This document shows, piece after piece, positions 961-58,576 of a DNA stretch of 64,000 bases (the stretch's first letter is position 1; each line of letters begins with the position of its first letter). The stretch covers positions 224,001-288,000 of the forward strand of contig JBGARZ010000005.1 in assembly GCA_044229975.1 (NCBI GenBank), given 5' to 3'. The translations under genes were made by a program, and so were the position numbers. This DNA is from Polyangiales bacterium. Its GTDB lineage: Bacteria > Myxococcota_A > Polyangia > Polyangiales > Ga0077539. The notes beneath the pieces are model-generated. The model was not told where the DNA came from, did not search any database, and was given only the letters and a program-made list of their open reading frames with translations.

Positions 961-2781
961 CTATCCCTCCGCGCTCGGTCGTTGTGCCTTGAAGTCTTCA
1001 GCCCCCGCCAGCGCCTCGTCGGTGCCCATCGCCCCCGACCGATCGGCGTCGGCGTACTCCGCCGTCGCATCGACGGTGCGATGAAAGCGCGCCCCGCGGA
1101 GATCACCCCCACCCCAACGCGTGCCCGACAGGTCGCTCTTCGACAGGTCGAGGTAGCGGCCCTTCACGTGCTCGAACGAGCTCCCACGCACGTCGGCCTC
1201 CACCATCTGCGCGCGCTCCAGGCGCGCCACCTCGAAGTGAGCGCTGTGCGCCTTCGTGCCCTCCCAGCGGGTGTCGCGCAGGTCGCTGCCGCGCAGGTCC
1301 CCCTGGTCGACGATCGCGCCCGAGAAGTCTGCGTGGCGGGCCTTCACCGCGCGCATCTTCACCTGCGTCATCGCCGCGCCGCGCAGGTCGGCGCGCACGA
1401 GTGACGCCTCGTCGAGCCGCGTCTCGGTGAGGTTGGCGCCGCGGAAGTCCGCGTCGGTGAAGTCCGCCTCCTTGAGGTTCATCCCGGCGAGCTTGCACCT
1501 CTGCATCGAGCACCGGACGAACACCGCCGCCCTCAAGCGACAACCCGTCAGGTCGAGCCCGTCGAGGTCAGCGCCCGTGAGGTCAGCGCCCGTGAGGTTG
1601 GCCCCCGCCACCGTCGCCCCCGTCCACGTCGTCTCCCCCGCATGAACATGTATCAGCCACGCCTCGGTGAGCTTCGCCTCGACGAGCTGCGCCCGCTCCA
1701 GCGTGGCGCCCTCCATGCGGCAGCGGCTCACGTCGGCCTTGGTGAAGTCCGCTTCGGTGAAGTCGACGCCCGCGAGGTCGCTCCCTGCCAGCGACGCCTC
1801 GCTGAAGTCGGTCATGGGCATCGACGCGCCCTGCCAACCCGTGCCTTCGAGCACGGCCTTCGCGAAGCTCGCCCCCTCGCCCTGCGCCCTGAAGAAGCGC
1901 GCCTCGGTGAAGTTCGCCCGGTCGAGCACCGCGCCCTTGAGCACCGCTCCCTCCAGCGAACACCGCTGCCCCTGCACCCGCGAGAGCGTCGCCTCGGTGA
2001 GCGTCGCGTCGACGAGCGCGGCAGCCTCCAGCACCGCGTCGGAGAGGTCGGCCCGCGTGAGCGTCGCACCCCGCAGCACCGCGTCGCGGAGGATGGCGCC
2101 CTGCAACCGCGCGCCCTCCATCGATGCGCCGGTGAAGTCGAGGCTGGTGAGGTCGAGGCCCGTGAGCTCGGCGTCGCGTAGTTGAGAGCCCGCGAGCGAG
2201 GCGCCCGTGAGCACGACGTCGCGCAGCGAAGCACCCGTGAGCACGGCGTACTTGAAGGTCGCGCGAGCCGCCGACACGCGGGTGAGCCGAGCGTCGGAGA
2301 GGTTGGCGTTGAAGAGGGCGGCGTCGTCGAGGAGGGTGTCCGTGAGCGTGGCGCGGGCGAGGCGCGCGTGCCGAAGCTGGGCGCGGGAGAGGTCGCACCC
2401 CGTGAGCGTGGCGCCCGAGAGGCGGGCGCCCTCGAAGAGAACACCCACGGCGTGACACTCGCGGAGGGACGCACCGCCGAGGTCGATGGCCCCCGCGTCG
2501 CAGGGCTCGTCGGGTCGCCCGAGGATGGCGCAGCGGGAGAGCGTGGCCTCGGTGAGCCGGCAGCCCTGGAGGTCGCACCCGCGGAAGACGACACCCGTGA
2601 GCGTCGCGCCGCCGAGGTCACATTGATAGAAGCGGCACGCCTCGAAGCGGACGTCGATGAGCGTCGCGTCGACGAAGGACTGTCCCTGGAGGTCGACCTC
2701 GCGGACGGAGACGTCGCGCAGCTCGCCGTGGTCGCGGAGGTGTTCGAGCACCGCGTCGAGCGATCGGAGGGTGACGGTCAC
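961..2781 (-). CDS. Pentapeptide repeat protein (T6SS-associated, TagB-like)
   Basis: Almost entirely A(D/N)LxGA-type pentapeptide repeats. The GTG start overlaps the upstream TGA (GTGA). Confidence 0.88.
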   Translation of the reverse strand: MTVTLRSLDAVLEHLRDHGELRDVSVREVDLQGQSFVDATLIDVRFEACRFYQCDLGGATLTGVVFRGCDLQGCRLTEATLSRCAILGRPDEPCDAGAIDLGGASLRECHAVGVLFEGARLSGATLTGCDLSRAQLRHARLARATLTDTLLDDAALFNANLSDARLTRVSAARATFKYAVLTGASLRDVVLTGASLAGSQLRDAELTGLDLTSLDFTGASMEGARLQGAILRDAVLRGATLTRADLSDAVLEAAALVDATLTEATLSRVQGQRCSLEGAVLKGAVLDRANFTEARFFRAQGEGASFAKAVLEGTGWQGASMPMTDFSEASLAGSDLAGVDFTEADFTKADVSRCRMEGATLERAQLVEAKLTEAWLIHVHAGETTWTGATVAGANLTGADLTGADLDGLDLTGCRLRAAVFVRCSMQRCKLAGMNLKEADFTDADFRGANLTETRLDEASLVRADLRGAAMTQVKMRAVKARHADFSGAIVDQGDLRGSDLRDTRWEGTKAHSAHFEVARLERAQMVEADVRGSSFEHVKGRYLDLSKSDLSGTRWGGGDLRGARFHRTVDATAEYADADRSGAMGTDEALAGAEDFKAQRPSAEG

Positions 2782-25487: not shown

Positions 25488-26990
25488 ATGACCATCGACC
25501 CCGTCCAGCGTCGTCCCATCGAGGCGCATCTGCCGACCATGCACGTCGGCCGCTACCAGCTCATCACGCCGCTCGGTCGCGGCGCGATGGCCACCGTGCA
25601 CCTCGCCCGCAGCGTCGGGAGCGCCGGCTTCGAGCGCCTCGCCGCCGTGAAGGCGCTGCACCGCGACCTCTGCTCCGATCGCGACCTGGTCGAGCGCTTC
25701 CTCGACGAGGCACGGCTCGCGGCACGGCTGCACCACCCCAACGCCGCGGCCATCCTCGACGTCGGCGTCGACGGCTGGCAGCCGTACATGGTCATGGACT
25801 ACGTCGAGGGCGACACGCTCCACGCCGTCCAGTGCACCGCCGTCTCCCGCCGAGAAGCGCTGCCGCTGGGTGTCGTGCTGCGCGTGGTGCTCGACGCGCT
25901 CGCGGGCCTCGACGCCGCCCACGAGCTGCGCTCCGCCGAGGGCGAACCGCTCGGTCTCATCCACCGCGACGTCTCGCCGCACAACGTCCTCGTCGGGGTC
26001 GACGGCGTCGCGCGGCTCATGGACTTCGGCATCGCCCGCGCGGCCACCCGACGACGCGCGACGGCCAACGGCATCGTGCAGGGCAACGTGCAGTTCATGG
26101 CCCCCGAGCAGCTCCGCGGGCGAGCGCTCGACCGCCGCGCGGACGTCTTCTCCATGGGCGTCACGCTGTGGGAGACGCTCGCGCTGCGACGGTGCTTCCC
26201 GCTGCGGGAGGGCGCTTCGATGGCGCGCTTCGCGCTCGAAGAGTACCGCTCGCTCGGGGAGCACGCGCCCGAGGCTCCGGCCGCGCTCGACGCCATCTGC
26301 CGACGCGCGCTGGCCGTCGAGCCCGACGACCGCTACGCCACCGCGGCGGCCTTCGCCTCCGCCATCGAAGAAGCCTTCGGACGCGACGTCGCGACGCAGC
26401 GCGAGCTCGGGCAGTTCATGTCCGCGGTGGCGGCCGAGAAGGTGGCGCGCGAGCGCAACGCCGCCCGCGCATCGGCGCAACCGCTGCCGGGACGAACAGA
26501 GGCCGCGCTCTCGCTGCGAACCACGGCGGCCGACCAGGGAGGGCGCTTTCCGGCCATCGCCACCGCGCTCCAGAACAAGCTCAGCACCCGTCGCTTTGGC
26601 GCGCTCCCGTCGCCCGCGGGCGCGGGGTCGCTCTACGACGCCGTCACGCAGGCGCTCTTCCGCCGCAGCCATGCGACCCGCCACGTCATCGCTCCGTGTC
26701 CCGAGCCGGCGACGGTCAAGGTGCGCGCGATGCCTTCGCGGCCGCCGTCGTTTGCCGCGCGGCCCACGTTGCGCCCGGCGCGTTCGTCCGCTCGTCCACC
26801 GCCCACGGGGCTCGACGGGCCCACGCGTCCGATGTCGGCGCTACGTCGCTCGCGTGCGCCCGCGGCGCTGTTGCTGGCGGCACCGGCGCCACAACGGACG
26901 CGCTGGTTTGGCGGGCTGCGGGCGCTGGCCGCGAGGCTCTGGTCGCGGTGGGGCGGAGTTGTTCGGGGTGAGAGAATTGAACTCCCATAG
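25488..26990 (+). CDS. Hanks-type Ser/Thr protein kinase
   Basis: GRGAMATV, HRDVSPHNV, DFGIA and MAPEQ motifs. The stop codon lies inside the antisense tRNA-Gln. Confidence 0.9.
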   Translation: MTIDPVQRRPIEAHLPTMHVGRYQLITPLGRGAMATVHLARSVGSAGFERLAAVKALHRDLCSDRDLVERFLDEARLAARLHHPNAAAILDVGVDGWQPYMVMDYVEGDTLHAVQCTAVSRREALPLGVVLRVVLDALAGLDAAHELRSAEGEPLGLIHRDVSPHNVLVGVDGVARLMDFGIARAATRRRATANGIVQGNVQFMAPEQLRGRALDRRADVFSMGVTLWETLALRRCFPLREGASMARFALEEYRSLGEHAPEAPAALDAICRRALAVEPDDRYATAAAFASAIEEAFGRDVATQRELGQFMSAVAAEKVARERNAARASAQPLPGRTEAALSLRTTAADQGGRFPAIATALQNKLSTRRFGALPSPAGAGSLYDAVTQALFRRSHATRHVIAPCPEPATVKVRAMPSRPPSFAARPTLRPARSSARPPPTGLDGPTRPMSALRRSRAPAALLLAAPAPQRTRWFGGLRALAARLWSRWGGVVRGERIELP

Positions 26991-27033
26991 CGGGCACCAA
27001 AAACCCGCGTCCTAACCGTTGGACGAACCCCGA
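26962..27033 (-). tRNA. tRNA-Gln (anticodon UUG)
   Basis: Cloverleaf TCGGGGT/ACCCCGA acceptor, GTCC/GGAC D-stem, CGGGT-TTTTGGT-GCCCG anticodon arm, GGGAG-TTCAATT-CTCTC T-arm. Has the U1-A72 pair, and CCA is not encoded. Confidence 0.93.
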
Positions 27034-56736: not shown

Positions 56737-57633
56737 TCAACCGCGCGGGTGGAAGCGCGCGTGCGCGGCCTGGAGGTGCTCGACCGTGACGTGCGTGTAG
56801 ATCTGCGTTGTCACGATGTCGGCGTGGCCGAGCATGGTCTGCACGGCGCGGAGGTCGGCGCCGCGCTCCAGCAGGTGCGTGGCGAAGGAGTGGCGGAGCT
56901 TGTGCGGCGAGATGGGGCGGTCGATGCCAGCGACGAGGGCGTACTTCTTGAGCAGCTTCCAGAAGCCCTGGCGGGTCATGGCCGTGCCGCGGTGCGTGAC
57001 GAAGAGGTCGTTGGTGGAGCGGCCCTTGGTGAAGGTCCCGCGCACCGTCTGGAGGTAGAGCATCATCGCTTCGCGGGCGACCTCCCCAAACGGAACGAGC
57101 CGACGCTTCTCCCCCTTGCCGAAGGCGACGAGCACCCCCTGGTCGAGGTCGACGTCGGTGACCTTGAGGTTGACCAGCTCGGACACGCGCAGGCCCGACG
57201 CGTAGAGCACCTGGATCATCGCGCGGTCGCGCACGCCGCGCGGGTTGTTGGCTTCGGGCGCGACGAGCAGCGACTCGACCTCGGGGAAGGTCAGCACGTG
57301 CGGCAGCTTGCGCGGCAGGCGCGGGCCGCTCACCAGCTTCGTCGGGTCGCTCTTCACGCGCCGCTCGGCCACGAGGAACTTGTAGAACCCCCGCAGCGCC
57401 GACAGCTTGCGGGCCTGCGCGCGGGCCGAGAGGCCCTCCTTCGAGAGGGCGATCATCCAGCTCGCGACGTCGCCTCCGTCGATCTCGCAGAAGGTGCGCT
57501 GGAGGTCCTGCCGCACGAAGACGGCGAAGCGCACGAGGTCCGTCGCGTAGGCCTCGACAGAGCGGGCCGCGAGGCCCTTCTCCACCCGGAGGTGCGCGAG
57601 CCACGCGTCGAGCAGCTGGTCATCGTCGGACAC
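56737..57633 (-). CDS. xerD: Tyrosine recombinase XerD
   Basis: LYASGLRVSEL, GKGEKRR, TRQGFW, HKLRHSFATHLL, LGHAD..TTQIYT and HPR end. Confidence 0.93.
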   Translation of the reverse strand: MSDDDQLLDAWLAHLRVEKGLAARSVEAYATDLVRFAVFVRQDLQRTFCEIDGGDVASWMIALSKEGLSARAQARKLSALRGFYKFLVAERRVKSDPTKLVSGPRLPRKLPHVLTFPEVESLLVAPEANNPRGVRDRAMIQVLYASGLRVSELVNLKVTDVDLDQGVLVAFGKGEKRRLVPFGEVAREAMMLYLQTVRGTFTKGRSTNDLFVTHRGTAMTRQGFWKLLKKYALVAGIDRPISPHKLRHSFATHLLERGADLRAVQTMLGHADIVTTQIYTHVTVEHLQAAHARFHPRG

Positions 57634-57685: not shown

Positions 57686-57715
57686 TTGCGTGTTGGCGAA
57701 ACCTGGGGCTATGGT
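57686..57715 (+). promoter_or_regulatory. Putative sigma70-type promoter for the tRNA
   Basis: TTGCGT-N18-TATGGT followed by a GC-rich discriminator, about 25 nt upstream of the tRNA. Confidence 0.5.
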
Positions 57716-57740: not shown

Positions 57741-57814
57741 GGGCCTATAGCTCAATTGGTTAGAGCCCCTGACTTATAATCGGGAGGTTTCGGGTTCAAG
57801 TCCCGATGGGCCTA
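57741..57814 (+). tRNA. tRNA-Ile with UAU anticodon (tRNA-Ile2-like body)
   Basis: GGGCCTA/TGGGCCT acceptor, GCTC-AATTGGTTA-GAGC D-arm, CCTGA-CTTATAA-TCGGG anticodon arm (TAT at 57775-57777), TCGGG-TTCAAGT-CCCGA T-arm, discriminator A. CCA is not encoded. Confidence 0.92.
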
Positions 57815-57865: not shown

Positions 57866-58576
57866 TTGCGCGAACAGCTCCTTGCCCTGGAAGAACTTGC
57901 CAAGAGCGACCTTGCCTGGCGGCAGATCGACGTCGAGCTGGGGGACGTCGACGCCCACCTCACAGCGACCCGATCAGACGTCGACCGCATCCGCGAACTG
58001 CTCGACCGCGAGCGCCAGCAGCTCACCGATGCTCAGCGCCTGAAGCAGACGCACATCGACGAGCTCGCCACCATCGACGACAAGTCGCAGCGCTCCAAGC
58101 GCCGCCAGGAGGTCGCGCGCAACAACCGCGAGATGGAGGCGATGACCCGCGAGATCGAGGTGCTCAAGAAGGAGCGCGAAGAGCGCACCGCCGAGGCCGC
58201 GCGGCTCGACGAGGTGGTGGCCGCGGTGAGCAAGCAGCTCGCCCAGCACGAGGAGGACTTCAAGGGCCTCACCGACATGCTCGCGACCGAAGAGGCGGAG
58301 GCGGTGAAGGCCCGCGAGGCGCTGCTCGCCCGCAAGGAGCTGCACAAGGGCGCGCGCACCGAGCTCACCGGGCGGGTGAAGCCCGAGATTCTTCGCATCT
58401 ACCAGATCGTGCTCAACCGCCGCGGGACGGCCGTGGCCGAGTGCAAGGACGGCATCTGCCGCGGCTGCTACATGGCGACCCCGCCGCAGCTCTACAACGT
58501 GATGTTGCGCGCCGAGAAGATCATCCAGTGCCCCAACTGCCAGCGCATCCTGCTGCCGCCGAACCTGTCCCGCTGA
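57866..58576 (+). CDS. Coiled-coil + C4 zinc ribbon protein (DUF164/CT398-like)
   Basis: Long coiled coil, then CRGC...CPNCQRIL. TTG start after a GGAG RBS. Confidence 0.88.
   Translation: MREQLLALEELAKSDLAWRQIDVELGDVDAHLTATRSDVDRIRELLDRERQQLTDAQRLKQTHIDELATIDDKSQRSKRRQEVARNNREMEAMTREIEVLKKEREERTAEAARLDEVVAAVSKQLAQHEEDFKGLTDMLATEEAEAVKAREALLARKELHKGARTELTGRVKPEILRIYQIVLNRRGTAVAECKDGICRGCYMATPPQLYNVMLRAEKIIQCPNCQRILLPPNLSR

Follow-up and report, generated by a model that had tools for sequence, protein, structure and literature searches.

The window, i.e., the whole 64-kb stretch of DNA analyzed in this study, contained an isoleucine tRNA gene with the genomic anticodon TAT (Table 1). ARAGORN called the gene as tRNA-Ile(tat), and Rfam model RF00005 was covered in full with a score of 67 bits. 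The sequence showed the anticodon loop CT-TAT-AA, the pairs C4-G69 and C5-G68, A73, and a G1.U72 pair, and CCA is not encoded. These results bear out the complete cloverleaf described in an earlier note on this DNA, as well as its Ile2-type body: C4-G69, C5-G68, and A73 were common to 28/28 genes of the source family and 30/30 Ile2 genes of the outgroup. Source family here denotes the family of this genome, a group of uncultured myxobacteria represented by 31 genomes in 10 genera, and the other members of the order form the outgroup. The upstream promoter that the earlier note considered plausible did not hold up, as a scan returned 0 sites and only a weak candidate was picked by eye. One contig from an RNA library started at the first base of the tRNA and continued into the next gene; contigs cannot show starts. 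The in-frame ATA codon reported earlier exists, on the minus strand, and is the only one in the gene calls for the window. Additionally, a second tRNA-Gln(TTG) gene (26961-27033 (-)) had an atypical body, like those of the accessory tRNA clusters of the genome on contigs C16, C19, and C24.

Table 1. Features of the window around and relevant to the tRNA-Ile(TAT) gene
Feature	Positions	Strand	Basis
In-frame ATA codon in ORF 961-2781(-)	1651..1653	-	gene calls
xerD, divergent upstream neighbour, housekeeping	56737..57633	-	TIGR02225, 361 bits (equivalog cut-off 329.6)
Weak promoter-like hexamers, 7/12 consensus matches, 18-nt spacer	57686..57715	+	by eye; below scan threshold
tRNA-Ile2 gene, genomic anticodon TAT, native Ile2 locus	57741..57814	+	sequence, ARAGORN, Rfam, orthologues in 29/31 family genomes
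Anticodon TAT; T57775 = U34	57775..57777	+	sequence; public contigs keep T
Coiled-coil / C4 zinc-ribbon gene (PF02591), directly downstream of the tRNA	57866..58576	+	marker shared with outgroup Ile2(CAT) loci

The identity of the base at 57775 was checked in contigs assembled from public runs, and C was not seen at this locus. T was kept in contigs of four runs, namely X1 (a 260-nt contig with 0 differences, possibly from the source sample), X7 (a diverged contig across the whole stretch), and the RNA-library runs X12 and X13. Rows with a T-to-C change among the public contigs were short pieces of tRNAs of other organisms and were rejected as evidence on this gene.

The comparison of the locus in relatives supported the suggestion that this is the native Ile2 locus. 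The zinc-ribbon gene adjoined Ile2(CAT) in 19 of 30 outgroup loci (downstream and on the same strand in 12 of these), and xerD was next to Ile2(CAT) in 0/30. Within the family, the xerD-tRNA-zinc-ribbon arrangement was found in 27/28 loci, the 28th not being parsed. An imported or phage-borne copy was rejected because xerD is a housekeeping gene and not the integrase of a mobile element, and because the locus is conserved. Taken together, the comparisons show that C34 gave way to U34 within the resident gene, at the root of a single family; since the family genomes are kin, it counts as one evolutionary event and not as 29.

The C34-to-U change proposed in the earlier note therefore stands, but not as a single change, since 28 family genes and 30 outgroup Ile2(CAT) genes also differed at position 26, at pair 31-39, and in the variable loop. 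The variable loop AGGUU was present in 28/28 family genes, a purine at position 26 in 26/28, and an A31-U39 pair in 23/28, and each of these was found in 0/30 of the outgroup genes. These changes alongside the anticodon (positions 26, 31-39, and 44-45) may reflect tuning of decoding or charging. Among the orthologues, that of G021 had C38 in place of A38 (L308:1486-1559), and that of G020 had a U31-U39 mismatch (L033).

The genome studied here (10.0 Mb in 39 contigs, 93% complete) belongs to a family with high-GC genomes of 5-12 Mb, all of them incomplete assemblies. Full-length orthologues were obtained from 25 of the 31 family genomes, and all 25 read TAT; four further TAT orthologues, from genus g4, were found by pattern, giving a total of 29/31. 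Thus, C34, the substrate of lysidine formation, was replaced by T34 in 29/29 orthologues found. No TAT orthologue was found in G014 and G018, nor were xerD and the zinc-ribbon gene, and the locus looks unassembled in these two genomes rather than exceptional. In an order-wide sample of 251 genomes at least 85% complete (24 of the source family and 227 others, including G125, which enters only these tallies), the TAT pattern matched 23/24 family genomes vs 1/227 others, the Ile2(CAT) pattern 0/24 vs 206/227, and TilS above the cut-off was found in 0/24 vs 215/227. The profile search likewise found no TilS above the cut-off in any of the 31 family genomes. The sole TAT match outside the family (G086) was a divergent tRNA in a 24-gene array, and that genome keeps TilS and Ile2(CAT). 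This array (L065:1284-5180 (-)) comprises 24 tRNA genes, including the divergent Ile(TAT) and a Leu(AAG).

ARAGORN identified 85 tRNA genes in the genome studied here, only two of them with CAT, and both were assigned by eye to initiator- and elongator-Met bodies; Ile2(CAT) was thus not found, in agreement with the search of the family genomes. The best TilS-like match, on contig C23, was TtcA (362 bits, cut-off 272). Ile(GAT) was missing from this genome together with 16S rRNA, and its absence is attributed to an assembly gap because 16S is also lacking. The family-wide Ile(GAT) pattern, which is insensitive, gave 1/31 matches and missed the gene of G027; Ile(GAT) was present in G013 and G027, both with assembled rRNA operons. 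With Ile(GAT) in these two genomes and 16S not assembled here, the idea that the UAU tRNA is the sole isoleucine tRNA was rejected. In G014, a gene with an Arg-like body and the anticodon TAT (L310:1483-1559 (-)) occupied the slot that holds tRNA-Arg(TCT) in the genome studied here, before Pro and opposite His-Arg-Lys, and no pattern match to a normal Arg(TCT) was found in that genome. Either an error, a pseudogene, or another case of recruitment may account for this gene.

We analyzed the use of the AUA codon in the gene calls of this genome (7,510 genes, 86% of the genome). ATA accounted for 334 of 2,845,823 codons (0.12 per 1000), with 82,870 ATC and 47,394 ATG codons, so that AUG outnumbers AUA by a factor of about 140, and 7,196 of the 7,510 genes had no ATA at all. 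Residues aligned to ATA sites in paralogues (n=127) were Ile at 0.275 and Met at 0.037, which resembles the profile of ATC sites (Ile 0.255, Met 0.030) and differs from that of ATG sites (Ile 0.049, Met 0.236). This comparison of paralogues shows that AUA means isoleucine in this genome, and reassignment to methionine was rejected because ATA sites match the ATC profile, unlike ATG sites. ATA was also scarcer in the family than in the outgroup, with 6/78,958 vs 20/33,886 codons in loci with GC3 above 0.85 and 13/87,411 vs 72/55,496 over all fetched loci, figures that are indicative only, as the gene sets differ between the groups. Relative to high-GC outgroup loci, ATA was depleted about 7-fold, and GTA and CTA less than 2-fold.

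The earlier note had suggested that this lineage may have lost tilS. A catalytically intact TilS was indeed not found in the 31 family genomes, but the gene is not lost: a motif-dead orthologue, hereafter the relic, was identified by profile matches in 28/31 family genomes, covering all 10 genera; it was not found in three of the 31 (64%, 77%, and 96% complete). In the genome studied here, the relic is a 331-aa ORF on contig C38 (143068-144063 (-)), scoring 25.7 bits against TilS model TIGR02432 (cut-off 93.6). The ftsH gene lay downstream of the relic in 28/28 loci; among the 21 outgroup loci fetched, 20 gave an identified TilS, and intact tilS lay upstream of ftsH in 18. In 27/28 loci, the start codon of the relic overlapped the stop codon of the gene before it. 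The PP-loop SGGxDS, responsible for the activation of C34 according to PMC12069591, was found in 0/28 relics vs 20/20 intact TilS, as were three further invariant TilS motifs, and the two Arg motifs had only loose matches in 3/28 and 4/28 relics vs 20/20. An acidic patch stands in place of the PP-loop and the Arg motifs, and the RPL motif was kept in 26/28 relics. These results suggest that the relic is catalytically dead. Nevertheless, its predicted model (pLDDT 84) shows a TilS fold, with Aquifex TilS as the best structural match (E 8e-15). Sequence profiles ranked TilS above TtuA in PDB, and an atlas search matched the relic to TilS clusters.

In a tree with 16 relics sampled, the relics formed one clade on a long stem with support of 100/100. 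Among the best 150 matches in 1.84 billion cluster representatives (50% clustering), 27 were motif-dead relics and the rest conventional TilS. A relic search of 301 phylum genomes gave more than 300 bits in three only, all members of the family; the other 13 phylum matches scored at most 124 bits, and those cross-checked coincided with intact tilS coordinates. Codon models gave relic omega values of 0.079 (g1, eight genomes), 0.124 (g2, seven), and 0.175 (g4, four). For comparison, intact tilS in five outgroup genomes gave 0.137, and rlmD, which neighbours the relic, 0.10-0.15. Fixing omega at 1 lowered the log-likelihood by 475, 246, and 76 units in the three genera, and second-position differences in g1 were 0.11 vs 0.47 at four-fold sites. 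These codon patterns show that the relic is under purifying selection in these genera. Its retention is uneven: in G018 the frame is broken at 159 aa; in genera g2, g4, g8, and g9 the protein has lost its C-terminal part and measures 208-240 aa; and in g4 the divergence of the relic outpaces that of rlmD.

In 28/28 loci, the gene immediately before the relic encodes a small Cys-rich protein (66 aa; C38:144060-144260 (-); L064:8061-8261) with four invariant Cys and one His. This gene also lay upstream of intact tilS in G191, and in the atlas the protein matched only unnamed Myxococcota clusters. A second, non-catalytic job is likely for the relic, and by analogy the most likely kind of role would be protein or DNA binding linked to ftsH. 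Such a link is a reasonable lead because the TilS-HprT complex of B. subtilis activates ftsH, as stated in the review PMC8152036; hpt is present in the genome studied here but unlinked to the relic.

The state of U34 was approached through the enzymes that might modify it. Neither mnmE nor mnmG was found in 61 genomes of the order (0/61 each; 26 of the family and 35 others, including closed genomes), with 9/14 among controls, which probably leaves these bacteria without the usual modification at C5, the one that assists U34 in reading G. A plain U34, unmodified at C5, is favoured by this gene content. In the genome studied here, C34 tRNAs were present for the split-box codons ending in G, with partners for Lys, Glu, Gln, Arg, Gly, and Leu all identified, and mnmA was found in the same gene run as the relic. 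The mnmA gene also lay near intact tilS in outgroup G044. According to PMC3919564, an unmodified UAU tRNA of B. subtilis binds AUA strongly and AUG weakly. Fidelity is not automatic, since Mycoplasma mobile tRNA-Ile(UAU) is reported to misread AUG on E. coli ribosomes (PMC3575796). The decoding-centre stretches of 16S rRNA showed no family-specific change between two family and three outgroup genes, and 31 family-specific columns lay elsewhere in the same comparison. The undescribed U34 modification or altered ribosome suggested in the earlier note is therefore unsupported so far, with no candidate enzyme and no change in the 16S decoding centre (2 vs 3 genes).

The genome studied here encodes a type-1 isoleucyl-tRNA synthetase (IleRS) with a C-terminal zinc finger, in which a Trp aligns to W890 of S. 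aureus. Type-1 IleRS was identified in 20/31 family genomes, 14 of which (including this one) keep the Trp and six have Arg; the Arg type had one origin nested inside the family (tree of 25 rows with at least 300 residues). Two residues after this site, Arg was found in 20/20 family type-1 IleRS and His in 7/7 of the outgroup, and this His-to-Arg replacement is apparently the only shared IleRS change at that spot. The remaining 11/31 family genomes gave no type-1 IleRS match, and 4/4 examined (g2, g5, and g10) had an IleRS without a zinc finger that we take to be type 2 by its type signature. Among outgroups keeping TilS, 28/35 lacked the type-1 C-terminus (one examined); type-2-like IleRS is apparently common there, and the swap is thus not specific to the family. 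The distribution of these types places the tRNA switch before the changes in the synthetase, which followed unevenly. The type-1 IleRS of the order (L066:307-3528 (-)) contained PYSKS, or PYAKN in this genome, presumably where KMSKS is expected, followed by an insert of about 60 residues.

The main difficulty for the decoding model lies in the charging of the UAU tRNA by a Trp-type IleRS. According to PMC3575796, E. coli IleRS with Trp prefers LAU over UAU 360-fold, so efficient charging is not explained here. In the same source, M. mobile IleRS has Arg at this Trp position, and W905R raises the activity of E. coli IleRS on UAU about 10-fold. PMC13752280 reports that one type-1 IleRS is less sensitive to the identity of the anticodon bases than type 2.

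Taken together, we give a probability of roughly two in three to the explanation that a native tRNA-Ile2(TAT) reads the rare AUA codon with a plain, lysidine-free U34, and that tilS survives beside ftsH as a conserved non-catalytic protein with a second role. IleRS would charge the UAU tRNA, and U34 would remain unmodified at C5, as MnmE and MnmG were found nowhere in the order. Two effects measured in B. subtilis, the weak pairing of unmodified U34 with G and the competition exerted by tRNA-Met, would limit the misreading of AUG. Inefficient charging or decoding would be tolerated given the rarity of AUA relative to AUG, and charging would become more effective through the later synthetase changes, from Trp to Arg in one subclade and to type-2 IleRS in others. 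The relic would serve a non-catalytic role. That it is a functional pseudoenzyme whose role is unrelated to tRNA-Ile(UAU) appears rather probable to us.

Alternative explanations differ in which part of this scheme they dispute. One holds that the TAT gene results from faulty assembly or is an extra copy in a genome that also has the usual TilS/Ile2(CAU) system. The 93% completeness of the genome and its unassembled rRNA operon speak for this reading, but its probability is close to nil: it was refuted by TAT orthologues in 29/31 genomes, Ile2(CAT) in 0/24, intact TilS in 0/31, and the occupation of the tilS slot by the relic, and an error is ruled out by these orthologues together with the T in the four public runs. 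Another reading makes the UAU tRNA a marginal species with poor charging; tRNA-Ile(GAU) would then decode what few AUA codons there are, or the cell would put up with slow translation at them. The Trp-type IleRS of this genome would fit, as would the depletion of ATA relative to GTA and CTA and its absence from most genes. G34 pairs poorly with A, however, the stems and A73 were intact in 28/28 genes compared from nine genera, and one subclade gained the Arg that improves charging, making this reading very unlikely.

The other alternatives concern U34 and the relic. If U34 carried a restricting modification (2-thiouridine from MnmA, or new chemistry), with the relic or the Cys-rich protein possibly acting as a tRNA-binding adaptor, both AUA specificity and recognition by Trp-type IleRS would follow. 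The retention of Trp in 14/20 type-1 IleRS, of the relic exactly in the lineage with the UAU tRNA, and of mnmA in its gene run would agree with this, as would the tRNA body changed family-wide (AGGUU, purine 26, and A31-U39). MnmA normally needs U35, however, its gene also neighbours tilS in G044, where TilS is intact, and the relic has an acidic patch instead of the ATP-binding PP-loop and Arg motifs. Both bacterial UAU isoleucine tRNAs measured in PMC3575796 and PMC3919564 were also unmodified, and we regard such a modification as unlikely. In a further reading, TilS was repurposed: the dead protein, translationally coupled to the Cys-rich one and encoded close to mnmA, would target tRNA-Ile(UAU) itself or the way it is modified, and so enable Trp-type charging and AUG rejection. 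This seems to us rather improbable; if true, it would be a new route to AUA decoding. Conversely, the decoding model may be right and the relic a functionless remnant in slow decay, its reading frame being preserved through constraints of the operon. Its breakage in G018 and truncation in four genera, the mere two invariant columns in 27 relic sequences, and branches of up to 2.3 (G019) point in that direction; RNA-library contigs gave almost no cover of the relic, which is uninformative on expression. Frame maintenance alone predicts an omega near 1, however, and values of 0.08-0.18 were observed, with omega=1 rejected in 3/3 genera. The second-position differences in g1 and the 27 motif-dead representatives at 50% clustering also speak against decay, which we judge to be improbable.

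A lysidine-free, plain U34 with a conserved, non-catalytic TilS thus remains our preferred explanation, and it bears on TilS as usually described: near-universal, essential, and known to act on just one tRNA. In this family, the substrate and the catalysis are gone and the protein is still selected, a natural separation-of-function experiment that isolates any further activity of TilS for study. The decoding switch can also be followed through its stages within the family, as Trp, Arg, and type-2 synthetases occur with one tRNA and close outgroups keep the old system; the published model of the reorganisation of AUA decoding thereby becomes testable by in vitro charging. The switch occurred in large high-GC genomes, plausibly eased by the near-absence of AUA and the earlier loss of MnmEG.

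UAU decoding without TilS is already known, and it is more widespread than the count of 2013, which gave nine species in three clades. PMC4013482 lists TAT genes in 19 species, and our collection scan for tRNA-Ile(TAT)-like matches gave at least 120 loci (L134-L253); among the matches listed, many were titled Patescibacteria, Saccharibacteria, Planctomycetota, and others. The statement in the earlier note that UAU tRNAs are known from only a few lineages was therefore overstated. What is new here is the retained dead TilS; together with the staged synthetase changes, it accounts for most of the interest of the family. No paper describing a myxobacterial UAU tRNA or the retention of a dead TilS came up in the literature search, with most subscription papers outside its coverage.

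The relic resembles TilS type II (Aquifex 1WY5/2E89) in fold and length, and its position before ftsH is that of B. subtilis TilS. It differs from TilS in that all catalytic motifs are gone, and from B. subtilis TilS-HprT in that hpt is unlinked. As in M. mobile, described in PMC3575796, an Ile2-type tRNA with TAT occurs without Ile2(CAT) or a working TilS, and six family genomes share its Arg at the same zinc-finger position of IleRS. Unlike M. mobile, the family has large high-GC genomes, with AUA at 0.12 per 1000 codons, and keeps tilS as a motif-dead orthologue where it is absent in M. mobile, and the IleRS of the genome studied here keeps Trp, with no basic residue at the W905/R865 site. 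The Bifidobacterium and Neorickettsia type, which according to the same source combines tRNA-Ile(TAT) and a eukaryote-type IleRS with no tilS, is approached by genera g2, g5, and g10 (type-2-like IleRS without a zinc finger in the four of 11 genomes examined), but not by this genome with its type-1 IleRS. The suppressor of a B. subtilis tilS deletion, tRNA-Ile1 G34U (PMC3919564), is similar in that a UAU tRNA replaces lysidine. That case, however, arose in the laboratory by recruitment of the GAU tRNA, in a bacterium whose IleRS has Arg, whereas here Ile2 was changed in place and Ile1(GAU) remains.
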